Under the pieces are notes generated by a model. The model searched no databases and had not been told where the DNA came from. It saw only the letters and a list, made by a program, of their open reading frames with translations. A DNA stretch of 64,000 bases, from NCBI GenBank assembly GCA_016342495.1, contig JAEIOG010000011.1, positions 4,330-68,329 on the forward strand, written 5' to 3'. A program made the position numbers and the translations under genes. This document shows, in pieces, positions 10,430 through 57,898 of the stretch (positions are counted from its first letter, which is position 1; each line of letters begins with the position of its first letter). Origin of the DNA: Phycisphaerae bacterium (GTDB taxonomy: Bacteria > Planctomycetota > Phycisphaerae > Sedimentisphaerales > SM23-30).

Positions 10430-10616
10430 TACCGATTTATGGCCTGTAATCAATGTTTTTAATTTTTTTTTTAATTTTTTAAAAACAATAATTGACATTT
10501 GTCCTGATTTAGGCTCTTAATTATGAAACTCTTTATCGTAAAGGAGTTTAACGAAAGCATAAATTTGTTTTCGTGAGTTATTTTAACAGTATTAATTTTT
10601 TAATTCTGGAGGCAAT

Positions 10617-10787
10617 ATGGTTGTTAATGTAGATACTGATAAATGTACCGGTTGTGGTGCTTGTGTTGATGTATGTCCTACTGATTCACTGGAAGTAGAA
10701 GGCGATGTAGTTGTCGTTAATGAAGACAATTGTATCGACTGTGGCGTTTGTGTTGATGAATGTCCTACACAGGCACTTGAAATGTAA
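10617..10787 (+). CDS. 2x[4Fe-4S] ferredoxin (56 aa)
   Basis: This gene is not in the ORF track because it is under 60 aa. GGAGG lies 5 nt before the ATG. My translation is MVVNVDTDKCTGCGACVDVCPTDSLEVEGDVVVVNEDNCIDCGVCVDECPTQALEM, which has two CxxCxxCxxxCP motifs. A strong terminator follows. Confidence 0.85.
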   Translation: MVVNVDTDKCTGCGACVDVCPTDSLEVEGDVVVVNEDNCIDCGVCVDECPTQALEM

Positions 10788-10808
10788 GTTTCAGACAAAC
10801 AAAAAAAA

Positions 10809-10844
10809 CGGCTTAGCGGGTGAACCAGCTAAGCCGTTTTTTTT
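10809..10844. terminator. bidirectional rho-independent terminator
   Basis: The stem CGGCTTAGC / GCTAAGCCG is flanked by A8 upstream and T8 downstream. It lies between the convergent ferredoxin and CotH genes. Confidence 0.85.
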
Positions 10845-10915
10845 GTAAAATTCAAGATAGAAGATTTTCTTACAATTCAGCAATGCTCTGATATTGCCAA
10901 GTTATTAGCATTTTG

Positions 10916-13900
10916 TTATAAGCCAGGACTGGGGTTTTCGGCCTGCCAGTTCACAATATCATTGCCATAAGTTTCATTGTCAATTCTTATTAATGCTTTG
11001 CCATTGCCATCGGCTTCAGTTGGCCAGGGGTCTTGACCAGTTGGATGTGAACCGTCGCTGTAAACAACTCGGTCGATACGAATATACTGTCTGATACCGG
11101 AATTATTAACATCGCCTGGCATAGAGAGTTGAATTTTTTCTCCAGCATTGCTGAGACTGCCATCGGTCCATTGATAAATCTGAGTGTTGTCTGGAGCGTC
11201 AAATTCACTATTAAAAGCAGTTAAATCCTTAACCAGTAGGATTTTCTCGCCGACAGCTATCGTTGTGTCTATTGGGAAATTAAATTCAATACCGCCATCA
11301 TCGCAAAACATCCATCCTTTATTGGCGAGACTATCATAAAGTGAGACCGGTTGGCTGGAAATATTTAACAGCTCGACATATTCAGCATCTTTATTACCCG
11401 CAGGGCCATACATGATTTCACTTATCACAACAGGTCCAACTTTTGGATAGGCGTTAGCTACTCCAGGGGTATTAGCACTCATCAGCACAAAATTATAGCT
11501 ATCGGTGCTGGCTTTATAATATCTTCCAAATGAAACATCTGTTGGCGAAGCTCCAAAATCTTCATCGATACGATAGCTGGTCAATTGCCCATCACTAGCT
11601 GAAGTTAAATAAACTGTTTCACCATTTTCGCTCAAGGCAAAGCTGGTGCCAAAATGAAGATGTTCATGAAATACGAGATAGCCATTAGCGGGGATAATCG
11701 TGCCATTAGAAATTTTATATTTTTTAAGCATTTCATCGGTTGAGTTATTATCACTTAAATACCAGCCGCCAATATTTATTGGGGTATTTGTTGTATTATA
11801 AAGTTCGATCCAGTCAGGTGATTGAGCATGCGAATGTGCCAGTATTTCACTGATGACAATTGCACCGGGTGCAGGAACAACACTATTGTCTTTAGCACCC
11901 GGCGAGCCGCCAACAATGCTGGAAGGTCGCCAGCTTGATTTTTCATTTAAGTCATTGTTAGCATTGGCATCTATTACTGATAATGAGAATCCATCGCCAT
12001 CGGTTACGTCAAACCAGCTATCGTTATATCCAAATTTTTGAATAGCAGTACCGATAGCATCTATTAGAGTGATTTTTTCACCAGAGTTGCTCAGGCTGCC
12101 GCTATATGTTCCGGCGATAATGCCATTAAAATCTATATAGGTATTATTGAATGTAGTAAGATCATTTGTGATAATGATATAGTCGTTGGGCTGTAAGTAC
12201 ATATCGCCGAAGGTGAAATCAATGCCATTGGTAAATTTAACCATATTGAGATTAATAGTTTCAATTCCAATATTAGTCAATTCGATAAATTCAGCTTCAG
12301 GTTCATTGGCGGGATGATACATAATTTCACTTATGCGTAGATTTTCAGCTACAGGGCCAACGGCAAAAGTTGCTTGATTGATCGCACTCCAGCTTTCATT
12401 GAATAACACTCTGGCTTTGACCTGAACAGAACTATCCATTAAAATTTGGGTTTCAGAACCGCTGCCATCGATTGTTGCGATCAATTCCAAGTCGAAGCTA
12501 ATATCACTGCTGCCATCATGCGTTTGATGGATTTCAACGGCAATGACATTTTCGCCATCGACAAGGTGACTAGGGTCGATATCGCTATCAAAATAAGTTG
12601 ATTCATCGGCACCGCCTACAACAAAATTGATGCCGGCATAGGTATCATAGCTGATTATACCATCAGGCATATTGTCGCGTCGTATTTCATTGCCATTTAG
12701 ATATAGAATCGCTCCATCATCTCTGCGTAGTTTTAACGCCAAAGCAATGATGTTATTTTTATTAGATACAGTGAATTTCTTGCGGAAATAAGTAGTGGCA
12801 TTTTTCTGTATTCCATCTGCAGTGCTAACATCTATGTAGCCTACAACCGTTGTTTCTGTGCCATCGCCATAACCAAGTTCGGCATTGCCTTGTTGCCAGT
12901 TATTGTCATTAAAGCTTAATTGCTGCCATGCGGTTCCCTGGTCGCTGCCATCATCGAGATATTTCCAGCTGGCTCCACGTGCTATGATTTCCTGTTGACT
13001 GTCAACGCCAGATTTATAGATCATAGCGTCAGGATTAATACCACCCTCAATTATCCGCGGGTCACTGCCATTTAAGGTATAATAAACAATTCCATTTTCA
13101 TCATTATCGGTCATAGTAAGCTTAAAACCATTTTCTACATTTCCGCCATGCTGGTTAAACACAGGGGCATCGATTTGTGGATAAAGACTTTTGTTTTTCA
13201 ATTGCCCCAAAAGAATTGATGTACGATTCTGTAAATATGAATTTTTAAGAAAGCCATTAACTTCAGCCCACCAGTGAGCTTTAGTGTAAGGATTATCGAC
13301 TCTATCGTTTCTTTGATCACCCCAACGAGCCGATTCTGCGATGATTGCCAAGTCGATTTCAGCAGCTCTGGACATTAATAGTTCCTGGGCTTTTTCAGTA
13401 GTCATGATCCCTTCATTAAATAGATAGATATGGGCCCGGTCAGCAAATTTTAAGCGATATTCGGCATTAGCCATCATCATCTGATGCAACCATTGCGGGT
13501 TGAATTTGTTTTGTGTATTACCCGCTGAAACTGTGATTGTGCGATCAATATTAGGGCTCAACATAGAATGTTCAGAATCATGGGCAAAGAATTGCCATCC
13601 TTGCCGAACCTGAGCGTTACGGTTGCGTACAGCATAAAAATTATTAGCACCAGTACCGCTTAATGTCACCGGGGCATCCTGATTGCCCGCATATAAAACT
13701 ACTAGCATATAATCGATTAAATTGTCAATATCAACATGAGCTTCTAATAGCGGGTTATCAATACCATCTGGGCCTTTGCCTTGAACTGCATAATATTTAG
13801 CATTGGTTTCAAAACCCTCCTGGGCTAAATTCCACAGTTCATTCCATTTATTGATCGTTCCATCGGTAGCGGCAACAGTATAGCTACCAGCTTCAACTTT

Positions 13901-16729: not shown

Positions 16730-19700
16730 ATGTATTTTAAGAACCGAAGTCTTTCTATTGCTTTAATAGCAATATTTTCTATGCAGCTTGCTGGTTTGGT
16801 CAATGCTCAAACCAATAATGACTCATGGGCGAAAGATATGCTTGCTCAGCGAGCTAGTCTAAGTAAATCCCTTGGCTCTGATTTTAAACCGGTTATATCT
16901 TCAGTTCTAAAAGGTTCCATGGCCCCTGAGCATCTTATCGTTGATATCACAGGTCAGGATAAGATTTACCTCATCGCCAAAGGCGTTCCTAATTATAATT
17001 TTGCTCAATCCGTCTGGGGCCAGGCAATATTTAAGACCGCTGATGGTCAAATTGTAAAACTATGCGACCTCGATGCCGTATCAGCTAAGACAGGTTGGGG
17101 AAAATTACAGAAAAACACAAATGTTCAGAATAAACCATTGCAAATTGGTTCTAAAAAACTGGCCCATGGTATTTTTGCTCATGCCGATAGTGTCCTCTGT
17201 TATAAGTTGGATAAGAAATATGTTTCCTTTGAAGCTTATGTTGGTATTGAATCAGTCGCTGGCACTAATGGCGGGGCTCAGTTTACCGTCGACATCAAAC
17301 CTGACCCCGGGCAGGAAATTTCAAATGCTATCAATGCTATTAATAAAAAATATCCTGACAAAAAAAACCTTATTACTGCTTTAGGATCCAAATGGTTTGT
17401 TTCCCCTGATTCAACTGCAACCGAAAAGCAAGCTTACAAGCAATTGCAGGCAATCAGTGGCGATGATGGCAGCTTTACCAAAAGGTTTAATGCTTTGGCC
17501 AAAGCCAGCAGCAATGATCCTCGTTGGCTTTGCCTCCTGGCGGATATTCAGGCTAGAGTCGATCAGCTTCAGGCCATTGACAAACAGATAGACAATGTCA
17601 ATGTCCAGGCTTTGCAGCGGGCAATCGCTGATTTATCGAAGACTTTTCCGGATAAATATACCAAAGGTTCACAGTTTGCCAAACAGCTTGATGAATTATC
17701 TGTCAATGTCGACCAGATCAAAGCTGGTCTGAAAACCGGCGACACTGCTTCAATCAATAAAGCTCAACAACTTATCGATTTGCAGAAGGAAATCCTCTTT
17801 TCTAACCCTCTGTTGGATTTTGATAAGCTTATTCTGATTAAACGTAAAGGTATGGGTTTGTCGACCAACTGGACTAGTAACTCTGCTGTTCCACAGCGCG
17901 GTTATGACAGCGAAATTATCCAGATTTCGCTGAAGAATCTTCAGCTTGAGCCTGAGGTTATCTTCAAAGCGCCTGATACAGAAATCATCGCTGATATTGA
18001 TCTGCACTTCGATTGCGATAAAATGATGTTTTCCATGCCTGATAAACGCAGACTCTGGCAGGTCTGGGAAGTTAAAACCGATGGCACTGGTCTAAAGCAG
18101 GTCACTCCCGGCAAAGAAACCGATGTGCACAACTATGATGCCTGCTATTTGCCCGGCGGTAAGATTATTTTTAATTCCACCGCATCAATGGCATCGGTTC
18201 CCTGCATTACCGGCAGTCACAAAATATCCAACTTGTACACTATGGATCCCAAGGACCAAAAGATTCGCCAGCTTTGTTTCGATCAGGAGCATAACTGGAA
18301 CCCCACTGTGATGAATAATGGCAGGGTGATTTATACCCGCTGGGAATATACTGATACTCCTCACTCCAATAGCCGCCTGCTTTTCCATATGAACCCCGAT
18401 GGCACCAATCAGGTCGCCTACTATGGCAGTAACTCCTATTGGCCTAACTCTGTATTCTATACCAGGCCTATTCCCGATCATCCAACGATGGTTGTTGGTG
18501 TGGTTACTGGTCATCATGGCCAGGCTCAGCACGTGGGTGAGCTGCTTTTGTTTGATCCGACCAAAGGTCGTCACGAAGCCAAGGGAGTTGTTCAACGTAT
18601 CCCCGGTTATGGCAAACCCGTCGAACCGATTATCCGCGATCAGCTGGTAGCTGGCTCCTGGCCGCAGTTTGCCTTTCCTTTTCCGCTCAGTGATAAATAC
18701 TTTCTGGTCACAGCCAAGCTTAATCCGCAAGCCCAATGGGGTATTTATCTGGTTGATGTTTTCGATAATATGCAGTTGATAATCGATTCACCGGACTATT
18801 TTCTGGCTGAACCCGTCCCGCTGGTCAAACGGCCTGCACCGCCGGTTATCCCGGAAATGATAAACCCTGACAGTAAAGAGGCCAATGTCTTTATCGCTGA
18901 TATTTATGAAGGTCCCGGCTTAAAAGATATCCCCAAAGGCACAGTAAAGAAATTACGCCTGTTCAGTTATACCTATTCTTATGATGGGGTGGGTGGTTTA
19001 TATGGCAGTATTGGTATCGATGGCCCCTGGGACATGCGTCGAATCATCGGCACCGTCCCGGTCGAAGCTGATGGCTCGGCAATGTTTAAGATACCGGCTA
19101 ATACACCCATCGCTATCCAGCCTTTAGATGCCGATGGTAAGTCACTGGCCCTGATGCGCAGCTGGTTTGTCGGTATGCCCGGCGAGCTGGTCTCCTGTGT
19201 CGGCTGTCATGAGCCCCAGAACAGCACACCGACCCTGCATCGCAGTATAGCGATGCGAAAGAAGCCTGCCGAGATTCAAAGCTGGTATGGTCCGACCCGC
19301 AACTATGCCTTTGCCCGGGAGGTCCAGCCGGTGCTGGATAAATATTGTGCTGGCTGCCACGATGGGACTGACTCTGGCATGCCTTATCTCAAAGGTGACA
19401 AGATGCTGGCGGACTATCGGACGACCATGCATGGCCATGCCCCTAATGGCGGTCGTTATACGCAGGCCTATGCTGACTTATTCCCCTATGTCCGGGGCCC
19501 CGGTATCGAAAGTGATTATCATCTGCTGACCCCGATGGAGTTTCATGCCGATACCACTGAATTAATCCAGATGCTCAAGAAAGGTCATAACAATGTCAAG
19601 CTGGATAAAGAGGCCTGGGATCGTCTTTACACCTGGATTGATATGAATACCCCTTATCATGGCTCCTGGTCGACCATCGAAGGTAAGCGGATGCTGGCCA

Positions 19701-20719
19701 AAGAGAATCGTCGGGCCGAATTGCGTAAGCTTTATGCCAATGTCGATGAGAATCATGAAGTCTATCCACCGCTGCCGCCATCGGAAGAATTTGTGATGCC
19801 TAAGTTAACCGACAGTGATATCCATATCCCGCGGATCAAGTGTGATAACTGGCCCTTTGATGCCGCCACTGCCCAAAAGATGCAGGATAAAGCGCCTCGG
19901 ATCATTGATTTAGGCAATGGCATCCAGATGAAGCTGGTTTATATCCCTGCCGGTGAGTTTGTCATGGGCAGTTATACCGGTCATAAGGATGAAAGACCCG
20001 TTGGCATCACTGAAGTTGAAGGTTTCTGGATGGGCGAACTTGAAGTGACCAATGAAATGTATGCTCAGTTTGACCCCAGCCACGATAGCAAACAGGAAAC
20101 CCGCAATGGTTATCAGTTTGGCGTGCATGGCTACCCTGAAAATGCTCCCGGTCAGCCGGCAATCCGGCTATCGTGGGCCGAAGCGATGGATTTTTGCCAA
20201 TGGCTTAGTAAAAGAACCGGTAAAAACTTCTCCCTGCCCACAGAAACCCAGTGGGAATACGCATGTCGGGCCGGCAGCGACCAGGAATTCAGTTTCGGAG
20301 ACTTAAATACAGACTTTTCAGCCTATAGCAACCTAGCCGACGCCAAGATCAAGGAATTTGCCAACAATCCCTATGAGATTGATGCCCCCTATAAGAATCC
20401 GAGCAAATACGATGACTATATTCCCAAGGATGAACGCTTTAATGATGGTGCCAAGGTCACTATCGCCTCAGGCAGCTATAAAGCCAACCCATGGGGGCTC
20501 AAGGACATGCATGGCAATGCCGCTGAATGGACTCGTTCGCTGTATATGCCCTATACGACTGACCCGGCGGTGCGTGATAATATCAATGCCACCGGTCCCC
20601 GGGTCATCCGGGGCGGCTCCTGGCGTGATCGCCCCTGCCGGGCCACCAGCAGTTTTCGCCTGAGCTATGAACCTTATCACAAAGTCTTCAATGTCGGCTT
20701 CCGGGTGATAATGCAATAG
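16730..20719 (+). CDS. secreted multidomain protein: NPCBM-like module, TolB-like beta-propeller, hydrazine-synthase-alpha-like middle domain, two CXXCH motifs, C-terminal FGE-sulfatase (SUMF1-like) domain
   Basis: It has a Sec signal and an NPCBM-like segment (GWGKLQKN..HGIFAHADS..GAQFTVD). Propeller repeats are present (DGTGLKQVT, MNPDGTNQVAYYG). The heme-c motifs are CVGCHE and CAGCHD. The FGE domain shows FVMGS..DERP, LSWAEAMDFCQWLS, TETQWEYACRAG, MHGNAAEWT, IRGGSW and GFRV. Confidence 0.8.
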   Translation: MYFKNRSLSIALIAIFSMQLAGLVNAQTNNDSWAKDMLAQRASLSKSLGSDFKPVISSVLKGSMAPEHLIVDITGQDKIYLIAKGVPNYNFAQSVWGQAIFKTADGQIVKLCDLDAVSAKTGWGKLQKNTNVQNKPLQIGSKKLAHGIFAHADSVLCYKLDKKYVSFEAYVGIESVAGTNGGAQFTVDIKPDPGQEISNAINAINKKYPDKKNLITALGSKWFVSPDSTATEKQAYKQLQAISGDDGSFTKRFNALAKASSNDPRWLCLLADIQARVDQLQAIDKQIDNVNVQALQRAIADLSKTFPDKYTKGSQFAKQLDELSVNVDQIKAGLKTGDTASINKAQQLIDLQKEILFSNPLLDFDKLILIKRKGMGLSTNWTSNSAVPQRGYDSEIIQISLKNLQLEPEVIFKAPDTEIIADIDLHFDCDKMMFSMPDKRRLWQVWEVKTDGTGLKQVTPGKETDVHNYDACYLPGGKIIFNSTASMASVPCITGSHKISNLYTMDPKDQKIRQLCFDQEHNWNPTVMNNGRVIYTRWEYTDTPHSNSRLLFHMNPDGTNQVAYYGSNSYWPNSVFYTRPIPDHPTMVVGVVTGHHGQAQHVGELLLFDPTKGRHEAKGVVQRIPGYGKPVEPIIRDQLVAGSWPQFAFPFPLSDKYFLVTAKLNPQAQWGIYLVDVFDNMQLIIDSPDYFLAEPVPLVKRPAPPVIPEMINPDSKEANVFIADIYEGPGLKDIPKGTVKKLRLFSYTYSYDGVGGLYGSIGIDGPWDMRRIIGTVPVEADGSAMFKIPANTPIAIQPLDADGKSLALMRSWFVGMPGELVSCVGCHEPQNSTPTLHRSIAMRKKPAEIQSWYGPTRNYAFAREVQPVLDKYCAGCHDGTDSGMPYLKGDKMLADYRTTMHGHAPNGGRYTQAYADLFPYVRGPGIESDYHLLTPMEFHADTTELIQMLKKGHNNVKLDKEAWDRLYTWIDMNTPYHGSWSTIEGKRMLAKENRRAELRKLYANVDENHEVYPPLPPSEEFVMPKLTDSDIHIPRIKCDNWPFDAATAQKMQDKAPRIIDLGNGIQMKLVYIPAGEFVMGSYTGHKDERPVGITEVEGFWMGELEVTNEMYAQFDPSHDSKQETRNGYQFGVHGYPENAPGQPAIRLSWAEAMDFCQWLSKRTGKNFSLPTETQWEYACRAGSDQEFSFGDLNTDFSAYSNLADAKIKEFANNPYEIDAPYKNPSKYDDYIPKDERFNDGAKVTIASGSYKANPWGLKDMHGNAAEWTRSLYMPYTTDPAVRDNINATGPRVIRGGSWRDRPCRATSSFRLSYEPYHKVFNVGFRVIMQ

Positions 20720-46591: not shown

Positions 46592-47875
46592 ATGAAAACA
46601 GCAGTTAGAGCACAATTGTCTACTATGATGTTTGTAGAGTTTTTTGTCTGGGGTGCCTGGACGGTAATTTTAGTAACCTATCTGATGTCTGGCATGGGCT
46701 TTAGTGGCAAGCAGGTAGGGGCCGCTTATGGTACTGCCGCTATTGCTTCGATGATTTCTCCATTTTTCGTGGGGATGTTCGCCGATAGATTCTTCTCGGC
46801 TCAAAAACTATTAGCCTTTTTGCATTTACTGGGCGGGGCCCTGTTGATTTTTGTTATTCCAAAAGCTACCACTTGGGGTGCTTTCTATGGGGCTTTGTTG
46901 GCTTATATGCTTACTTATATGCCAACGCTGGCTTTGACCAATACCATAGCTTTAAAACAAATGCAGGATCCGGAAAAGGAATTCCCCCCGATTCGCCTGT
47001 TTGGTACATTGGGCTGGATTGCTGTGGGTTTTCTGGTGGGTTATATGTATTTAAGTGGCGATGGTAGCCTGAAAATGGTATTTGGCAAGGTAGAGGCCGG
47101 TAGCGATCTGGTTGAAGTGGCCCAAACTGCCATACCATTTAAGATGGCTGGTATTGGAGCAATTATTCTGGGATTGTTCAGCTTTATGTTGCCGAATACT
47201 CCGCCACAATCAGCTGGCCAGAAGATTACCGCCAGAGATATTTTAGGATTGGATGCTTTGAATCTGTTCAAGGATAAATCCTTTACTGTTTTTGCCATTT
47301 GTTCAATGCTTATTTGTATTCCTTTGGCTTTCTATTATAATTTTACTAATCAGTTTTTAGGTGATGCTGGTATGTTGAATGCCCCGGCTAAAATGACATT
47401 TGGCCAGATGTCTGAGGTATTCTTTATGCTCGTTATGCCGTTCTTCTTCAAACGCCTGGGCGTTAAGAAAATGTTGCTGGTTGGTATGATTTTCTGGACA
47501 GCACGTTATTTGTGTTTCTCTTTTGGCTATAGTCAGCAGGCCCTTATCCTATTGTATCTGGGTATTATTTTCCACGGTATCTGCTATGACTTTTTCTTTG
47601 TTACCGGTCAGATTTATATCGATCAAAAGGCTCCAGATCATCTGCGTGGCAGTGCCCAGGGGCTGATAGCCTTTATTACTCTTGGCGTAGGTATGTTTAT
47701 TGGTGCCAATGTTTCTGGCATGATCGTAGATAATTATACAACTACAGTTGACGGGGTAGTTAAGCAGGATTGGGGCACTATCTGGATGATTCCCGCAGCG
47801 ATGGCGGCAGTGGTGGCAATAATCTTTGCTCTATTCTTTAAAGATGACAAGAAAACTGCTGAAGTTACAGATTAA
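46592..47875 (+). CDS. MFS transporter, nucleoside:H+ symporter (NupG/XapB-like) family
   Basis: AGGAG lies 6 nt before the ATG. The product has about 12 TM helices. The N-terminus LSTMMFVEFFVWGAWTVILVTYL resembles the NupG family signature. Confidence 0.7.
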   Translation: MKTAVRAQLSTMMFVEFFVWGAWTVILVTYLMSGMGFSGKQVGAAYGTAAIASMISPFFVGMFADRFFSAQKLLAFLHLLGGALLIFVIPKATTWGAFYGALLAYMLTYMPTLALTNTIALKQMQDPEKEFPPIRLFGTLGWIAVGFLVGYMYLSGDGSLKMVFGKVEAGSDLVEVAQTAIPFKMAGIGAIILGLFSFMLPNTPPQSAGQKITARDILGLDALNLFKDKSFTVFAICSMLICIPLAFYYNFTNQFLGDAGMLNAPAKMTFGQMSEVFFMLVMPFFFKRLGVKKMLLVGMIFWTARYLCFSFGYSQQALILLYLGIIFHGICYDFFFVTGQIYIDQKAPDHLRGSAQGLIAFITLGVGMFIGANVSGMIVDNYTTTVDGVVKQDWGTIWMIPAAMAAVVAIIFALFFKDDKKTAEVTD

Positions 47876-50367: not shown

Positions 50368-51873
50368 ATGGTGTTTATGGCTGAATTAGTTGCAAAAATT
50401 AAATCTGGAAGCTTCTGGCTGATAATTCGATTTATCCTGGCATCTCTGGTGGGTCTGGTTACTATGCCTATGATAACTAGAGGACTGACAGTCAAGCAAT
50501 ATGGCATATATAGCATGCTTTTTAGTTTGATGTTCTATGTTGCCACGCTGTCTTCACTGGGTATCAATGACGTTTTTCAGCGATTCATTCCAGATGCTTA
50601 TCAGAAAAAAGATTATGGTTTTATAAAAAATATCGTTTTTAAAGGTTTGTTTATCAGACTTTTCTCCGCTACGGTATTTATTTTAATGCTTATCTTTTTT
50701 TCCAAAGAAATTGGTTCCATGCTTGGAGTTGCGGGCTGGGAGGAATATTTTTCTTATTTCAGTATAGGTATTATTTTTTTTCTGGGTTATTTACTGTTCG
50801 TGATTGTTTTTCAGGGTATTTTTTTACAGAAATATTCTGCTATTGTTGCTATTGCTTCTTTACTGGTCAGATTCTTGGCACTGTGCGTGATTTTTGCGAT
50901 GGGGTTTAAGTTACTGGCTCTCATTATTGTGGAAATAGCTATTTGGATTTTGAGTTTCACTTTAGCTTTATATTTTTATCAGCATAAATTTGTCAAACCG
51001 ATAGGCCTGGTTGAAAAAACAAAAATCCCACTCCGTCGGTTGCTTAGCTATAGTGGCTATTCAGCGTTCAATGAGGCTGGCCATGTAGTATTCAGTTCGG
51101 CTACTGATTTGCTGGTTATAGGTATTTTTCTTGACCCTTTTAAAGCTGGGATATATGGCTTTTGCTGCAAAATAGCGGATTATTTCTGGAAGTTTTTACC
51201 TACCGGAATTCTTTGGGAGATGATCGTTCCGGTTTTCTTTTCCCGTCATGCAAAATCAAAATGTAATAAGGAATTGAATATCATGTTCAATTTCCTGGTT
51301 AAGACGGATTTGTTTTTCACTTTACCATTGGCCCTTACAGTTTTTATTCTAGGCCAGGAAATAATCCAGATTGTATTCGGTGAAAAATATTTATCCGCTT
51401 ATCCGGTTCTTTGTGTTGTAACAAGCTTTTTTGTAGTCAGCACTATCCAGAGTCCAATAGGCAATGTTTTAAGAGCAGTTGAAAAAATGAACGTGGTTTT
51501 TCATTCTCAGTTTTTTGCGATATTAAATCTTGTAGGTGATATTCTGGTAGTCAATAAATATGGCATAATTGGTATTGCCTGGGTTACTTCAATTTCGATT
51601 CTGGGCAAAAATTTATATTGTTTTTATTTTGCTCGAAAAGCCGTAGATTTAAAAGTTGATATTGCCCCTTTGTTGAAAATTGTCACGAACGGATTGGTCG
51701 TTGGTGTGCTGTTTTGGACATTGAAAAGTCATACGCAAGGCCCGATATCCTTGGCGATTATAGTGGTATCCGGTGTTTTGATATATTTGCTGTTAAGCTA
51801 TTTTAATAACTTCTTTGACAAAACTGAAAAAGAATTCTTACTGAAAGTTCTGCCAGTTAAACTTTGGCGATAA
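50368..51873 (+). CDS. polysaccharide/oligosaccharide flippase (MOP/Wzx-like)
   Basis: The 501-aa product has about 12-14 TM helices, and the gene is very A+T-rich. The topology and length are typical of Wzx-type flippases. Confidence 0.65.
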   Translation: MVFMAELVAKIKSGSFWLIIRFILASLVGLVTMPMITRGLTVKQYGIYSMLFSLMFYVATLSSLGINDVFQRFIPDAYQKKDYGFIKNIVFKGLFIRLFSATVFILMLIFFSKEIGSMLGVAGWEEYFSYFSIGIIFFLGYLLFVIVFQGIFLQKYSAIVAIASLLVRFLALCVIFAMGFKLLALIIVEIAIWILSFTLALYFYQHKFVKPIGLVEKTKIPLRRLLSYSGYSAFNEAGHVVFSSATDLLVIGIFLDPFKAGIYGFCCKIADYFWKFLPTGILWEMIVPVFFSRHAKSKCNKELNIMFNFLVKTDLFFTLPLALTVFILGQEIIQIVFGEKYLSAYPVLCVVTSFFVVSTIQSPIGNVLRAVEKMNVVFHSQFFAILNLVGDILVVNKYGIIGIAWVTSISILGKNLYCFYFARKAVDLKVDIAPLLKIVTNGLVVGVLFWTLKSHTQGPISLAIIVVSGVLIYLLLSYFNNFFDKTEKEFLLKVLPVKLWR

Positions 51874-53178: not shown

Positions 53179-54861
53179 TTACTTGACGCTAACGGCTGCT
53201 TCGGTGGTCCAGCGGCCATCTGGGTTAACCCACAGCATGCCGGTATTACTGAAAAATTCCAGCCGGGCAATTGCATATGCTACAGCTGTTTTGGTGAGGT
53301 CATTATGGCTTTCGATATAATCTTCCTGGGCATCTAATACATCGCGAGTATTGGCCCGATTGACTTTTAAAAGTTTTTGCGTATTATTAAATCTTTCTAG
53401 GGCTAGAACTGTGCTTTGTTTTAGAATTGGTAAAAGGGTTTTGCTCTCTTGCATATTTCTCAAGGAATCCTGGACATCAAATTTGATTTGTTCAGTTATA
53501 ATCTGGTGACTGCGTTGGCGCTGAGCCAGGTTAATCAGCGAGCGTTTATAAGTATATTTTTCCTGTTTTCTATCTATAGGCAGGTCCAGCTTAAGAAAAA
53601 CTTCGTAATTCTGGGCTGTTTTAGTCAGTCCTCCCGGTTCGGCTCCAAAAGTGAGGGATTCACTGTCTGAGGCAAATGCCCCGGTGATAGATAAATCTGT
53701 TTTTAAGGCATCGCCTGCAACATAAACCTTGCGGTGAGCATCGATAACCTGGTCGCTGGCATTAATAAGGTCCAGTCTTTGATTCAAGGCGTATTCAATA
53801 GCTTTTTCGTTGGTCATGGGTAAATCAGCGGGTTCACTTGCGTTTAATATTTCAAGTTCAGCATAATCCAGCGTAATTTCCTGAACTTGCGGGATCAATA
53901 GACGTAATTTGAATTCGTCCAGCATTTGCTCATATTCTTTTTGGGTCTGAACTAAGTTATTCTGGGCTTCATTTTTATCCTGAATCGCTTGCTGAAGTTC
54001 ATGTTTAGGAAGTCGTCCATACTGTGATAATATTTTTGAGTTCGATAAGAAATTTTCCAGTAATTCAAGATTTAGCTTTGCAGTTGTCAGTTCGTCCTGC
54101 TTTTGTAATAATAAATAATAATCAGTTGTGACAGATACGATAAATTCTTTGCGGAACTGGTTGAAATCTCGCACTGCATACAGCGTATCTCGCTGAGCCT
54201 GTGTGAGCTTTTCCAGCACTACAACTCGATCTGCCCCACGAAGCAAAGGTTGAGTTATCACAGCTGAGAAAATAGAATTAGCTCCGCTTTTGATATCGCC
54301 GGTTAGTACATTGAGATATGTGCTTTGTATCGCGGTATTAAAAACTGCTCCGGTTGCCAATAGTTTTTCAAAACCATTTTCAGAATCAGCTCTTAGTGCA
54401 TTATCGTTGCGTCTTTGCCCTTGATAGCCAGCATCTGTGGTGCTAAAAGGGATCATTTCATAGAAATATTCTACTTTTTTTTGATCCAGGGCGGTAATGA
54501 AAAGCATTTCCCGGGAGGCATTGTATTCATTGCTTCTCTCAATAGCCAACTTGACAGCGTCAACTAATTTAAGCGGATTGGCATTGTCAATTGCGACGGC
54601 CTGGCAAGCTTTATTACGCTTAGCTGGAATAATACCTTTTTTGTCGTCATCAGTCAGATATTCTGAAATTTTATAATCTGCTAAACTGCCGTAGCTGTCT
54701 GACCAGTTTGATTCAATAATAGAGTTGACATCTTGATCTAAATCGTCTGAAAGTTTTGCTCCGGGCTTGCTACAGCCAACGGCAAACAGGCAGGAATAGA
54801 AGATTAACATCAGAATTTGATTTATTCTGCAAGATTTATTTGTGATATGCATTGTAGGCAT
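53179..54861 (-). CDS. TolC-family outer membrane efflux lipoprotein
   Basis: It has a lipobox (FAVGC) and the two-repeat alpha/beta OMF pattern. Its ATG overlaps the stop of the upstream adaptor gene (TAATG). Confidence 0.8.
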   Translation of the reverse strand: MPTMHITNKSCRINQILMLIFYSCLFAVGCSKPGAKLSDDLDQDVNSIIESNWSDSYGSLADYKISEYLTDDDKKGIIPAKRNKACQAVAIDNANPLKLVDAVKLAIERSNEYNASREMLFITALDQKKVEYFYEMIPFSTTDAGYQGQRRNDNALRADSENGFEKLLATGAVFNTAIQSTYLNVLTGDIKSGANSIFSAVITQPLLRGADRVVVLEKLTQAQRDTLYAVRDFNQFRKEFIVSVTTDYYLLLQKQDELTTAKLNLELLENFLSNSKILSQYGRLPKHELQQAIQDKNEAQNNLVQTQKEYEQMLDEFKLRLLIPQVQEITLDYAELEILNASEPADLPMTNEKAIEYALNQRLDLINASDQVIDAHRKVYVAGDALKTDLSITGAFASDSESLTFGAEPGGLTKTAQNYEVFLKLDLPIDRKQEKYTYKRSLINLAQRQRSHQIITEQIKFDVQDSLRNMQESKTLLPILKQSTVLALERFNNTQKLLKVNRANTRDVLDAQEDYIESHNDLTKTAVAYAIARLEFFSNTGMLWVNPDGRWTTEAAVSVK

Positions 54862-56027
54862 TATTTGATCCCGCGTATTCCAACAACTTCATCAGGAGTC
54901 AATCCCATAATATCACCGTTAACAGGGATAATCGCGGGCCAACCCCATTTGGGCATTGTCGGACTGTCCCACATATGTTCGGGCAACAATTCTATTGCTG
55001 GACTAAGTGATTCTATTCTGGAGGCAAATATAATTCTGGGCTCTGTAGTTTTGATAACTTCAACAAGCATATCTTTTTTAACAATACCGAGTTGACCCTG
55101 ATTAAGCCAAAGCTTGACCTGATCCGGTGTTGTCGCTGTTATTTCAAAAATAGCATCGTTTTTTGCTACTGTTTGAGCATTGTCGGGGCGATGGTAGATT
55201 TTACTGATAATTCCATCAAATGGTGCGACAATCGCAATTACAGTTTCAGGAAGCAAAAGTTCAGCAATTTTCTTTTGCTGAAGGTCAATCGCTTTTTTCA
55301 ATGGCTCCAACAGCTCAGTTGAGAATTCTGTAAAACTGGAATTAAAACTATTCGCTCTTTGTTTAAGTGTTTCCAGTTGTTTTTGAGCAGCGAAAAGCAT
55401 TTTTTCGTTGCCTTCAATTTTTTTGGCAAGTGTTTCATATTGAACTTGTGCTTTTTGTACTTCATATTCTTCAATAGCTTTTTGAGCAAAAAGCTCAGCC
55501 AACGTATCTTTTTCCAGTTGGAGATCTTTCAGTAGAATCTTATCTGGTTCCAGCTCGGTCTGGATTTCAATGACATCTATTCTTGCTTTTTCAGTTTCAA
55601 GTAGAAGCTGCCAATAGCGATATTGCAAATCCTGCTTATGTTTTTGGTTTTCTAAGTTGAGTTTCTGTTCGGTGGCAATGAGGTCTGCGCGAATCTTTTC
55701 GAGTTCAGCTGTGGCTGTATTTTTTTTAAGTTCGAGCATAGCCATATCATATCTTTGGTCAACATTATTCTGAACATTGAGATAGGCTAATACCTGGTCT
55801 TTTTGAACATATTGATATTCTTTGATTGCTAGTTGCTGGCTATTGTGAGTATTGATTAAAACGCCAGTATCAACAGCTTTAATAACACATTTTTCGCCTT
55901 GGGCCATTCCTACCTGCTGGAAGCTTGCCGCCTGATGTGAATACAAAAGAACAACTGCTCCAAGAGCTGTAATCCATACAACAATAGGAAGAAAGCTGAT
56001 ATGTAATTTTCCTTTATGGTGATTCAT
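54861..56027 (-). CDS. HlyD/EmrA-type periplasmic adaptor (membrane fusion protein)
   Basis: It has a single N-terminal TM helix, a coiled coil of about 150 aa, and a C-terminal beta-barrel (IVAPFDGIIS). Confidence 0.8.
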   Translation of the reverse strand: MNHHKGKLHISFLPIVVWITALGAVVLLYSHQAASFQQVGMAQGEKCVIKAVDTGVLINTHNSQQLAIKEYQYVQKDQVLAYLNVQNNVDQRYDMAMLELKKNTATAELEKIRADLIATEQKLNLENQKHKQDLQYRYWQLLLETEKARIDVIEIQTELEPDKILLKDLQLEKDTLAELFAQKAIEEYEVQKAQVQYETLAKKIEGNEKMLFAAQKQLETLKQRANSFNSSFTEFSTELLEPLKKAIDLQQKKIAELLLPETVIAIVAPFDGIISKIYHRPDNAQTVAKNDAIFEITATTPDQVKLWLNQGQLGIVKKDMLVEVIKTTEPRIIFASRIESLSPAIELLPEHMWDSPTMPKWGWPAIIPVNGDIMGLTPDEVVGIRGIK

Positions 56028-56039
56028 ATGTATATCCGT

Positions 56040-56741
56040 TTACATTTCCAGAAGTTGTTCCTGCATTGTCAAGCTCAGATGCGATATGTCCTGAATATCT
56101 TGAATTTGGGAAATCATCTGTTCATTTTTGGTAGAATTCTTAACCAGCACCTGATAAGCATAATCGGTTTTGTTGGGGTCACTGGGATTGCTATTTGATG
56201 AAATAAGTGTGAAATTTCTGCAGAAGCGTTTTAGGGTGGAATGCATCGGGTGGTTGCTGTCCAGATGCGTTGCTGAAGTAAAGCTTATAAAACCATTGGA
56301 AGGGTACCGCATGCCAAAATCAGAAATATGCATATAGACAAATACCAGGCATAAGAAAAATGTGCCTATACATGCGATCCCATATTTTCCGGTACCGCAA
56401 GCCATGCCTATTACCAGAGCGCAAAATAGAAATGCGATATCACGGGTATTTTTAATGATATTTCGGAATCTAATAATGGATAAGCCACCCATTAATCCAA
56501 CCGCAACCACGAAGCTGCCAGAGATGATTGGCATTATAAGTGAAACAACCATTGTAATGACAATCAGTGATTGTACAAATGATTTTGAATATGACAACCC
56601 ATTATGGGTATAGCTGTATATCCATGCCAAGGCCTGACTCAGAACAAAAGCTAATAGCAAAGAGTGCAACACAGCCCATACTTCAAGGCTGGTGCCTATG
56701 CCGTTATTGTTGTTTATAATATTCCAAATTTTGTCTATCAT
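56040..56741 (-). CDS. DUF4956 domain membrane protein
   Basis: It has 4-5 TM helices and the DUF4956 hallmark GLSIIRFRNIIKNTRDIAFLF. It ends 12 nt before the adaptor gene. Confidence 0.8.
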   Translation of the reverse strand: MIDKIWNIINNNNGIGTSLEVWAVLHSLLLAFVLSQALAWIYSYTHNGLSYSKSFVQSLIVITMVVSLIMPIISGSFVVAVGLMGGLSIIRFRNIIKNTRDIAFLFCALVIGMACGTGKYGIACIGTFFLCLVFVYMHISDFGMRYPSNGFISFTSATHLDSNHPMHSTLKRFCRNFTLISSNSNPSDPNKTDYAYQVLVKNSTKNEQMISQIQDIQDISHLSLTMQEQLLEM

Positions 56742-57025
56742 AGTTTACGTTCTAAAAAAATTAAATGAAATCTATAAATCAAAAGGCGTTCTATATTGCA
56801 TGCCTAAATCTGTTTGTTTTTAGTATGTGTTAGGGCTGGTCATCATGCAGGTAAGTTGCTTAACTCTAATTAAATTTCTGTTAATCGTGGAATCAGTAAA
56901 GAAAAAGAGTTTTCTATTAAAGATATACCACAATCCAGCAAATATTCGCATTTTTTGTTAAAAACTTTTAAAAGCCAATATGCTGAAAATTATTCACTTT
57001 ATGTATTATATCAACACTTCCTGGT

Positions 57026-57898
57026 TTAGTTTACCCAGGAATATGCAGGTAAAGTTCTCACCGAGCTGCAATACTTGGACATTGATGAAATATTCAAGTT
57101 AAACATTCGCACCATATTGCTAAGCCAGGAAGGGTAATTGGATGTAAATTTGATTTCAAGTACAACAAAGTTAGCTTTGACATCCTGCCAACCGGGTCCG
57201 TTTATTTTTATGATCGGCTCATTGGTCATTTGGCACGATAAACATCGATCAAAAGTTATTCTGACACGATTTTTTGCAGTGCTTTCATAAGCCTCACGTT
57301 TATATTTAACTAAAGCTATTGGCTTTGCATGTAACAATTTATAATAAGTGAGAAATTGTCTCAAATCGGTATCATCATGATCGGCGATAATAGGTGGTAT
57401 TACATTGTCCACCAAAAATGGTTTTAAGTCATTGCGATGTGCTTTATAGCGACTTTTGCAAATAACTTCTCCGAGCCTGCGTTTTACTTCAAAAAATATC
57501 GGCGATTCTGGATCATCGCTGTAGGCTCGTACACGAAGCTTATAGCGATTGCATTTGCCATCCATTGTTTCATTAAACAACGTGAGTTGGCTGGAGTCAA
57601 AATACACACTAGAAATATAATATTGATGATCAGGCTGAGCGACTGAATACTTGTCCAATGGGATGATGGGCCTTAGATATTCGGTAAGCAACTGGGCTTG
57701 AAGTTCACTAATTCGATATTTGAGCTCATATCTTTGTGACAGGAAGCTGTCATCCTGCTCAATCTTTTCAGTCTGCTGTATGGCCAAGACTTGCGGTGCC
57801 TTGACTACAGAGACCTGAGTGGAGTGGCTTATTTTTTTTCGAGGTATGGTCTTCATTGCTGTTTTTACCGATTGCCAACTGGTATAACAGCTATGCAT
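57026..57898 (-). CDS. VTC domain (polyphosphate polymerase/CYTH-like tunnel) protein
   Basis: The VTC pattern is present: RYELKYRI, SVYFDS, YKLRVRAY, FFEVKRR, KYKREAY, VRITFDR, VVLEIKF and a C-terminal SKY. The start is uncertain (alternative ATG at 57856). Confidence 0.85.
   Translation of the reverse strand: MHSCYTSWQSVKTAMKTIPRKKISHSTQVSVVKAPQVLAIQQTEKIEQDDSFLSQRYELKYRISELQAQLLTEYLRPIIPLDKYSVAQPDHQYYISSVYFDSSQLTLFNETMDGKCNRYKLRVRAYSDDPESPIFFEVKRRLGEVICKSRYKAHRNDLKPFLVDNVIPPIIADHDDTDLRQFLTYYKLLHAKPIALVKYKREAYESTAKNRVRITFDRCLSCQMTNEPIIKINGPGWQDVKANFVVLEIKFTSNYPSWLSNMVRMFNLNISSMSKYCSSVRTLPAYSWVN

Follow-up and report, generated by a model that had tools for sequence, protein, structure and literature searches.

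The genes studied here lie in a window of 64,000 nucleotides (nt) from contig JAEIOG010000011.1 of a Phycisphaerae bacterium (assembly GCA_016342495.1, positions 4,330 to 68,329), the whole stretch of DNA that was analysed. The window contains a cassette of four co-directional minus-strand genes encoding, in order of transcription, a VTC-domain protein, a DUF4956 inner-membrane protein, a periplasmic adaptor of the membrane fusion protein (MFP) kind and a TolC-family outer-membrane factor (OMF) (Table 1). The initial annotation of this locus had proposed a candidate machine for the synthesis and export of polyphosphate (polyP) with no canonical pump, and its description of the genes was reproduced throughout. 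The four open reading frames (ORFs) are present at the coordinates claimed, the motifs RYELKY, YFDS, KLRVRAY, FFEVKRR, RITFDR, VVLEIKF, SKY and GLSIIRFRN..TRDIAFLF are all found in the translations, and the VTC, DUF4956, HlyD and OEP domains each exceed the Pfam gathering score in profile searches. The junctions are also as described: 12 nt separate DUF4956 from the adaptor gene, the adaptor stop and the OMF start overlap in TAATG, and VTC and DUF4956 are separated by a gap of 284 nt.

Table 1. Genes of the cassette and other features of the window considered in the text.
Feature	Length	Coordinates	Strand	Basis or position
VTC-domain protein	290 aa	57026..57898	-	Pfam VTC PF09359
AT-rich spacer, VTC/DUF4956	284 nt	56742..57025	no strand	sequence read
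DUF4956 inner-membrane protein	233 aa	56040..56741	-	Pfam PF16316
Membrane-anchored periplasmic adaptor (MFP, EmrA/HlyD-type)	388 aa	54861..56027	-	Pfam HlyD_3 PF13437
TolC-family outer-membrane factor (OMF), lipoprotein	560 aa	53179..54861	-	Pfam OEP PF02321
Secreted protein, dockerin + LTD x3, divergent from cassette	577 aa	58315..60048	+	Pfam LTD, Dockerin_1
Giant protein, dockerin + CHB_HEX_C_1/Fn3_assoc + CotH kinase + LTD x4	1588 aa	10916..15682	-	Pfam
Wzx-type flippase		50368-51873	opposite to cassette	1.3 kb from OMF gene
MFS nucleoside:H+ symporter		46592-47875	opposite to cassette	5.3 kb from OMF gene

The VTC-domain protein matches PF09359 with E = 1.8e-39 (136.1 bits against a cut-off of 23) over model positions 1-234 of 235. 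Pfam gives the VTC domain alone, and no SPX domain, transmembrane (TM) segment or signal peptide was found in the protein, which points to a cytoplasmic, soluble enzyme. The best match of the family profile in the PDB is the catalytic domain of Vtc4 (3g3q, 4.2e-09), with Vtc2/Vtc3 ranking lower, and the hhalign comparison of the family with fungal Vtc4 reached 96.9%, or 97.5% in global mode. A single-sequence phmmer search of the PDB returned nothing relevant, and short N- and C-terminal sub-profiles gave chance matches only, with no extension of the Vtc4 alignment. The AlphaFold2 (AF2) model of the protein is poor (predicted local distance difference test, pLDDT, 52). Foldseek ranks 13 VTC tunnel domains at the top and a CYTH cyclase (‘putative adenylate cyclase’) next, an outcome that is partly circular and lends weak support, since the input alignment held Vtc4 sequences.

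Nine residues of Vtc4, K200, R264, R266, K281, Y359, R361, E426, S457 and K458, are needed for polyP synthesis; E426 is the Mn2+ residue, and K458 is the single position that differs in the inactive Vtc2/Vtc3, where Ile or Leu is found (Liu et al., bioRxiv 10.1101/2023.01.27.525886). In the hmmsearch alignment, R264, R266, K281, Y359 and R361 correspond to R122, R124, K139, Y199 and R201 of the window protein, and in the 96.9% hhalign alignment with fungal Vtc4, E426 (and K428) corresponds to E248 (and K250). Global-mode hhalign places R196 and K200 at R56 and K60, and S457 and K458 at S274 and K275; the mapping of K200 and S457/K458 depends on this global alignment and on motif spacing. The nine equivalents are invariant in 29 of 29 VTC family members, and K275, the K458 equivalent, sits in an invariant S-K-Y motif. 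The catalytic tunnel residues, on whose presence in a proper alignment the polyP proposal had been staked, are thus all kept, K458 equivalent included. Judged from this conservation, the protein is a Vtc4-type triphosphate-tunnel enzyme with a conserved catalytic apparatus, and it probably has polyP polymerase activity.

The DUF4956 protein matches PF16316 with E = 6.8e-15 (55.6 bits against a gathering score of 30.6). All 877 homologs collected carry the PF16316 annotation, and many of them are named ‘YhiD’ by JGI. The nearest, 55-60% identical, belong to Sedimentisphaerales, Anaerohalosphaeraceae and Phycisphaerae bins, and the superfamily comprises 6,287 representative clusters (50% identity) at E<=1e-3. 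The AF2 model (pLDDT 75) has helices at residues 21-45, 53-73, 77-91, 99-116 and 120-139 and a C-terminal beta-alpha-beta-beta-alpha-beta domain (148-226). Foldseek matched only the C-domain, weakly, to ACT-type domains (RelA/SpoT ACT, IlvN, NikR; E ~2e-3). The family profile had no match among PDB sequences, and neither that search nor Foldseek matched the membrane part to any solved channel or pump. Similarity to MgtC (Pfam PF02308, 5.5e-4, 20.7 bits against 31.4) and to MgtC/SapB (NCBIfam PRK09977, 3.5e-5, 23.5 against 214) is sub-threshold. The protein would thus have some five TM helices and an ACT-like domain in the cytoplasm, and it remotely resembles MgtC. The model agrees with the published prediction for the streptococcal homolog SIR_1592, an MgtC-like TM domain with an intracellular ACT domain (PMC12345266). 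MgtC itself is regarded as a regulator and not a transporter, both generally and in the discussion of that paper.

The two most conserved segments of DUF4956 are T-H-x-G-L-S-Y-S-K-S and R-F-R-x-x-x-K-D-T-R-D. An invariant basic motif runs through the latter (R91-F-R93-x3-K97-x2-R100-D101), and the RFR...KDxRD signature is kept in relatives of only 25-35% identity. The acidic N-terminus of the family and the basic cluster R91-D101 are consistent with an N-out/C-in topology, in which both conserved segments would be cytoplasmic and the periplasmic side would be nearly empty.

The adaptor matches HlyD_3 PF13437 (E = 9.5e-07, 30 bits against 22.2) and is built of an N-terminal TM helix, a split lipoyl domain with an alpha-hairpin of ~180 residues between its halves, and a beta-barrel. 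The MFP profile found EmrA of Aquifex in the PDB (4tko, 8e-15 over 284 positions), LipC (1.6e-11) and then MacA, MexJ and HlyD, and its alignment with EmrA spans the lipoyl domain, hairpin, second lipoyl half and beta-barrel. Long-hairpin adaptors pair with inner-membrane proteins without periplasmic domains, and the ~180-residue hairpin fits the near-absence of a periplasmic domain in the DUF4956 model. Only four positions are invariant in the family alignment, and two of these (P14 and W18) lie inside the TM anchor, which suggests a specific intramembrane contact. A further conserved motif, RLWxNPxxPxWGRPxxIxIP...GExVGIRGL, follows the beta-barrel at residues ~350-388 (54861-55000); we recognise no counterpart of it in classical adaptors.

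The OMF matches OEP PF02321 in two stretches (E = 9.1e-20, 71.7 bits against 22), and its profile found E. coli TolC in the PDB (2xmn, 4.5e-07 over ~300 residues). It is a lipoprotein, as the initial annotation held, with the lipobox AVGC and Cys30; at least 49 of 62 homologs share the lipobox cysteine. With 44.8 against a cut-off of 225.15, the protein falls far outside the TIGR01844 subfamily. The adaptor likewise misses the NCBIfam subfamily cut-offs (35.8 against 94.9 for RND_mfp, 18.5 against 208.65 for type_I_hlyD). Since all NCBIfam matches are sub-threshold, both proteins are to be seen as divergent members of their superfamilies.

The conservation of the cassette was studied with one genome per species, 80 loci being fetched from 246 genomes with a close DUF4956 relative. 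Surveyed cassette loci are lettered L, and counts were pooled between collections without de-replication. The first three DUF4956 homolog loci on long contigs have the order VTC-DUF4956-MFP (~380 aa)-OMF (~550 aa) in wholly different flanks. Where the contig leaves room, VTC lies directly upstream of DUF4956 in 74 of 74 loci, the MFP gene directly downstream in 73 of 73, and a TolC-like OMF gene follows the latter in 56 of 65. Median spacers are -1, 7 and 21 nt for VTC-DUF4956, DUF4956-MFP and MFP-OMF, respectively. When all ORFs of 120 aa or more in the 80 loci were clustered all against all, without bias towards any family, only four families proved ubiquitous: DUF4956 (80 loci), VTC (79), MFP (77) and OMF (62). 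Behind them ranked antisense shadow ORFs, then CotH/LTD giants in 31 loci and a secretin in 9. None of the families that recur around the cassette in these loci is a transporter, whether ABC, RND, MFS or of another kind. The observation that the cluster holds no pump extends to its relatives, with the caveat that a flippase and an MFS symporter lie nearby in the window on the opposite strand. Both were rejected as the pump of the cassette, since neither family recurs beside it in the surveyed genomes.

The association also holds in reverse. A metagenome pattern scan seeded from a subset of the MFP alignment gave 38 MFP-seeded loci, which were screened for the cassette families only; DUF4956 is upstream in 33 of the 33 with room, and VTC is present wherever the contig reaches. 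The same patterns also retrieved 18 generic MFPs, which score 1e-7 to 1e-24 as against 1e-70 or better for the family and have neither VTC nor DUF4956 beside them. A second DUF4956 clade, ~34% identical and mostly from Planctomycetota, retains the VTC-DUF4956-MFP triad in the arrangements CotH/LTD-VTC-DUF4956-MFP, CotH-VTC-DUF4956-MFP-LTD, VTC-DUF4956-MFP-OMF and MFP-VTC-DUF4956; a profile search for distant DUF4956 relatives also returned mostly Planctomycetota. Chance adjacency was rejected, as the same order and orientation occur in unrelated flanks and the association is near-obligate both ways. VTC, DUF4956 and MFP form the invariant core, and the ~7-nt spacers, together with an MFP that never occurs without DUF4956, suggest a stoichiometric complex. 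The initial annotation had made its case depend on DUF4956 being followed by MFP and OMF genes in related genomes: the DUF4956-MFP adjacency is conserved without exception, whereas the outer-membrane partner varies and is not always TolC-like.

Compared with these loci, the window itself is an outlier in its VTC-DUF4956 spacer, a distance that exceeds 100 nt in only 2 surveyed loci. No terminator-like site, Rfam family or ORF was found in the spacer, and promoter-like sites showed no enrichment in it or over the scanned region. The spacer may represent an insertion or else a promoter region inside the operon.

Several loci depart from the common arrangement. In L088 (4962-6956, divergent clade), HlyD-family and VTC sequences share one open frame with no stop between them. 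The gene caller divided this frame into pieces of 362 aa and 259 aa, and either an MFP-VTC fusion or a read-through artefact could explain it. L128 (3897-6837) has a divergent VTC-DUF4956-VTC-MFP order with weak profile scores and may contain a duplicated or decaying VTC gene. In L045 (6016-6928) and L090 (6312-8938), VTC, and in L090 also MFP, are split into two or three ORFs, probably by long-read frameshift errors rather than by pseudogene formation.

Among 112 VTC-DUF4956-MFP loci, the outer-membrane partner is TolC-like in 88, a secretin in 12, both in 1 (L080) and none or unknown in 11. Where the TolC-like gene is missing, its place beside MFP is mostly taken by a GspD-type secretin, in which Pfam finds STN, Secretin_N and Secretin domains (1e-42 to 1e-46). 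A rough neighbour-joining tree, which has no support values, splits the secretin-linked MFPs into two or more well-separated groups. The 80-genome clustering shows neither pseudopilins nor a secretion ATPase nor any further type II secretion family recurring around the cassette, and the secretin variant therefore differs from type II secretion, in which pseudopilins, a GspE ATPase and a GspF platform accompany the secretin. The service of one VTC-DUF4956-MFP core by two unrelated channels points independently to transit across the outer membrane as the conserved feature. A thin linear polymer is one of few cargoes that fit both a TolC duct and a secretin. The exchange is in itself an unusual natural experiment on the pairing of adaptors with outer-membrane channels. 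Two loci have peculiar secretin genes: L123 (7293-10824) carries a tandem pair beside the cassette, and in L080 (8109-10397) a secretin fused to TPR repeats lies between DUF4956 and MFP, with a TolC-like fragment also there.

The cassette is often accompanied by CotH/LTD proteins. A protein of this kind lies within 7 kb of it in ~30 of the 80 genomes, mostly co-directional, while most loci have none; the association of bacterial VTC and DUF4956 genes with CotH that the initial annotation mentioned is real. In the flanking giants, a CotH-kinase domain is joined by four or five LTD domains, CHB_HEX_C_1/Fn3_assoc modules and sometimes a dockerin, and the proteins carry N-terminal Sec-type signal peptides. 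The signal peptides and dockerins make these proteins extracytoplasmic, and the giants were rejected as cargo of a type I secretion system (T1SS), the signals being of the Sec type. In the window, the protein divergent from the cassette matches LTD at 3.5e-41 in three stretches and Dockerin_1 at 1.2e-06 and has a signal-peptide-like N-terminus. The 1588-aa giant shares its architecture with the cassette-flanking giants of L027, L050, L055, L057, L061 and L087 and is likely to be a functional partner, displaced by ~40 kb in this genome. Secreted CotH-kinase/LTD proteins thus belong to the functional neighbourhood of the cassette. Both window proteins and the giants of the same six loci end in YGND..NW....PSPG, which could serve in sorting or anchoring or merely mark where the last LTD domain ends.

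CotH, VTC and DUF4956 genes are also known from Gram-positive bacteria, where they form an accessory module contiguous with pel operons (PMC7112168). In S. intermedius (SIR_1592-1594), mutants that have lost either the DUF4956-like or the CotH gene have less Pel and aggregate less, and the trio was stated in 2025 not to be found outside Pel loci (PMC12345266). The modules share a VTC protein, a DUF4956 protein (MgtC-like TM part with ACT domain) and a secreted CotH kinase. Unlike the Gram-positive trio, the one described here is not at a pel locus, belongs to diderm bacteria and has gained a dedicated MFP and outer-membrane channel; its CotH domains are fused to LTD and dockerin modules and do not always adjoin. 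The Phycisphaerae family is thus a case of the trio outside Pel loci, contrary to the 2025 statement (PMC12345266). In B. thetaiotaomicron, a DUF4956 gene lies beside a DUF2490 gene (BT3498-BT3499), both in the iron stimulon (PMC10434189), and DUF2490 is a possible parallel partner of DUF4956 in another diderm phylum.

We put at about even the probability that the operon synthesises polyP at the inner membrane and exports it across the envelope in a polymerisation-coupled manner. The soluble VTC enzyme would build up a polyP chain from the gamma-phosphate of ATP and pass it to a DUF4956 oligomer whose conserved hydroxyl- and arginine/lysine-rich loops are predicted on the cytoplasmic face; docking of VTC or the sensing of a ligand could fall to the ACT-like domain. 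The adaptor would touch DUF4956 through its conserved TM helix and bridge the periplasm to the TolC-like lipoprotein or, in some lineages, to the secretin, through either of which the linear polymer would exit. No pump would be needed, since chain elongation itself could drive extrusion as in eukaryotic VTC and the synthase-dependent exopolysaccharide systems; by this analogy, chain growth may supply the force. The exported polyP might, more speculatively, serve as a surface or matrix polyanion, or as a phosphoryl donor or binding partner for the dockerin-anchored CotH-kinase/LTD proteins. That the cassette represents an unrecognised class of secretion, a pump-less, polymerase-driven exporter in which a Vtc4-type enzyme and a DUF4956 channel feed an adaptor/TolC or adaptor/secretin duct, is a tentative proposal, its probability lying somewhat below even.

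The proposal that VTC and DUF4956 make and thread polyP keeps its foundation in the domains, the tunnel residues, the adjacency and the absence of a recurring pump, whereas the product, the conduit and the export are putative. The place assigned to DUF4956, that of the inner-membrane transporter, agrees with its near-obligate adjacency and with the lack of any recurring pump, but the protein is unlike a Vtc1-type channel and remotely MgtC-like. A number of points weigh against polymerisation-coupled export. The polyP product, its export, the DUF4956 pore or oligomer, the protein contacts and the extracellular role are steps that we infer. The only recognisable relatives of DUF4956, the sub-threshold MgtC/SapB/YhiD proteins, are known as regulators and not transporters; its membrane domain has no detectable channel-like fold, and an oligomer must be assumed because a monomer with 4-5 TM helices cannot form a pore. 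The predicted structure of the VTC protein is weak and was built on an alignment that included Vtc4, the long spacer sets VTC apart from the other three genes in the window, and ~10% of loci show no adjoining outer-membrane channel. Finally, the Pel phenotype in S. intermedius implies that the output of the module may be regulatory or may modify another polymer.

In a different reading, in our opinion rather unlikely, VTC makes polyP while DUF4956 is only an MgtC-like anchor or regulator, its ligand-sensing ACT-like domain controlling VTC or phosphate/energy homeostasis. The polymer would then stay inside the cell or at the membrane, and MFP and channel would export something else, e.g., counter-cations or a small molecule. 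The remote MgtC similarity, the ACT-like C-domain, the regulatory action of MgtC proteins (PMC12345266) and the lack of a detected channel-like fold favour it, but it leaves unexplained why this MFP subfamily never occurs without DUF4956 (33/33 and 73/73) at ~7-nt spacing and offers no other recurring inner-membrane protein to feed the MFP; the swap of TolC for a wide secretin is also hard to square with a small-molecule substrate. Alternatively, VTC could be a tunnel-fold phosphohydrolase of NTP, triphosphate or polyP that energises export by DUF4956-MFP-OMF in place of the missing ATPase. The tunnel superfamily does include triphosphatases and cyclases, the CYTH protein is the next fold match after VTC, and the system has no other energy-coupling component. 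We nevertheless consider hydrolysis improbable, as the best family match is VTC and not CYTH, Vtc4 outranks all other tunnel enzymes and the full set of Vtc4 polymerase residues is invariant, including the K458 equivalent.

The frequent and mostly co-directional adjacency of the CotH/LTD giants (~30/80 genomes), together with the existence of the secretin variant, could also be read as a sign that the cassette secretes or assembles these proteins at the surface, with VTC and DUF4956 as accessories. Secretins normally pass folded proteins. However, the giants have Sec-type rather than T1SS-type signals, are missing from most loci and lie 40 kb off in the window, no pseudopilin or secretion ATPase recurs in the 80 genomes, and to our knowledge a folded 1,500-aa protein cannot traverse a TolC-type duct; this explanation is very improbable. 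There is little likelihood, too, that the module instead modifies or regulates an exopolysaccharide, for example by supplying phosphoryl groups for extracellular phosphorylation by CotH, with polyP as an intermediate and not the exported end product. The lowered Pel and aggregation of the S. intermedius deletions (PMC12345266), the contiguity of the trio with Gram-positive pel operons (PMC7112168) and the CotH/LTD neighbours agree with such a role, but no pel or polysaccharide-synthesis family recurs beside the cassette in the 80 genomes, and a phosphoryl carrier would still have to be exported across the envelope, so that this explanation largely overlaps with polyP export. The MFP/OMF pair may, as far as the sequence tells, work with a pump encoded elsewhere.

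The proposed exporter resembles several known systems without coinciding with any of them. It shares with the eukaryotic VTC complex (Vtc4/Vtc3/Vtc1; PDB 3g3q, 7ytj, 8i6v) the catalytic tunnel domain with its nine polymerase residues and, as proposed, the logic by which synthesis on the cytoplasmic side is tied to transit through a partner in the membrane. Unlike the eukaryotic proteins, the bacterial enzyme has neither the SPX sensor nor the fused three-helix TM domain. Its membrane partner is the separate DUF4956 protein, which has no sequence or fold match to the VTC complexes in the PDB, membrane subunits included, and the proposed destination is the outside of a two-membrane cell, reached via MFP and channel, and not the vacuole lumen. 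EmrAB-TolC, MacAB-TolC, HlyBD-TolC and LipBCD have in common with the cassette a TM-anchored adaptor with a long hairpin and with lipoyl and beta-barrel domains, a TolC-family partner and a tight operon. Canonical tripartite efflux systems and T1SSs encode an ABC, RND or MFS transporter together with MFP and OMF; in the 80 genome loci no such transporter recurs, nor does one in the 38 MFP-seeded loci within their screen for the cassette families. VTC and DUF4956 occupy its place, and the outer-membrane partner can be a secretin.

MgtC/SapB/YhiD proteins are laid out like DUF4956, with several helices in a small membrane domain and an ACT-like domain in the cytoplasm, and are weakly similar to it in sequence, but DUF4956 scores well under their cut-offs and has its own invariant RFRxxxKDxRD signature. 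We know of no link between MgtC and VTC, MFPs or outer-membrane channels. Polymerisation-driven extrusion along a dedicated periplasmic and outer-membrane route, with no separate pump, is represented by the alginate (Alg8/Alg44/AlgK/AlgE), cellulose (Bcs) and PNAG (Pga) systems, and Alg44 has an MFP-like periplasmic domain. These synthase-dependent systems use a membrane glycosyltransferase as polymerase and, in the outer membrane, a beta-barrel porin with a TPR scaffold. In contrast, the cassette would handle an inorganic polymer and has a soluble tunnel polymerase and a TolC-like or secretin channel.

The components of the cassette are thus of known kinds, and it is their combination, a tripartite-style duct with an engine of tunnel-fold polymerase and DUF4956, that is undescribed in the literature searched. 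The full-text search found only five papers naming DUF4956 and no description of VTC or DUF4956 linked to MFP, TolC or secretin, in line with the initial annotation, which knew of no description of the architecture; only the CotH-VTC-DUF4956 trio at Gram-positive pel loci came up. Bacterial polyP synthesis is attributed to PPK1 and PPK2. A 2023 review mapped VTC domains across eukaryotes only. Some bacteria are reported to secrete or accumulate extracellular polyP that affects host cells, and no export route for it was found in the literature searched.

If the proposal is true, the cassette would be a bacterial counterpart of the ‘synthesise and translocate’ principle of eukaryotic VTC, and for the first time an MFP/OMF system would be seen to run on a polymerase instead of a pump. 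It would provide diderm bacteria with a dedicated route for placing polyP on the surface or in the surroundings, possibly serving the secreted CotH kinases. The DUF4956 superfamily and bacterial VTC proteins, with the Pel-linked trio of Gram-positive pathogens among them, would gain a function, and there would be a mechanistic lead for the effect of the CotH-VTC-DUF4956 genes on Pel-dependent streptococcal aggregation. Demonstrated export of polyP would merit recognition of a new class of secretion system. The hypothesis is directly testable, since it concerns only four genes, names the catalytic residues and predicts a product that can be measured.

A few further proteins were recorded near the cassettes and in the window. 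A family of ~371 aa directly follows the OMF gene in 8 genomes (L020, L030, L042, L055 at 10573-11682, L059, L071, L076 and L078); a 369-aa member has no Pfam match, and a 470-aa member has only a sub-threshold Ig-like one. DUF3616 proteins lie near two secretin-variant cassettes (L032, 13401-14540; L072, 10954-12090). Both families may be further accessory components. Far from the cassette, the plus strand of the window encodes a protein of 1329 aa (16730-20719) that unusually combines NPCBM and the hydrazine-synthase alpha middle domain with a cytochrome c motif and an FGE-sulfatase domain. The GC-content locally rises at this gene to ~0.50, compared with ~0.40 elsewhere in the window.

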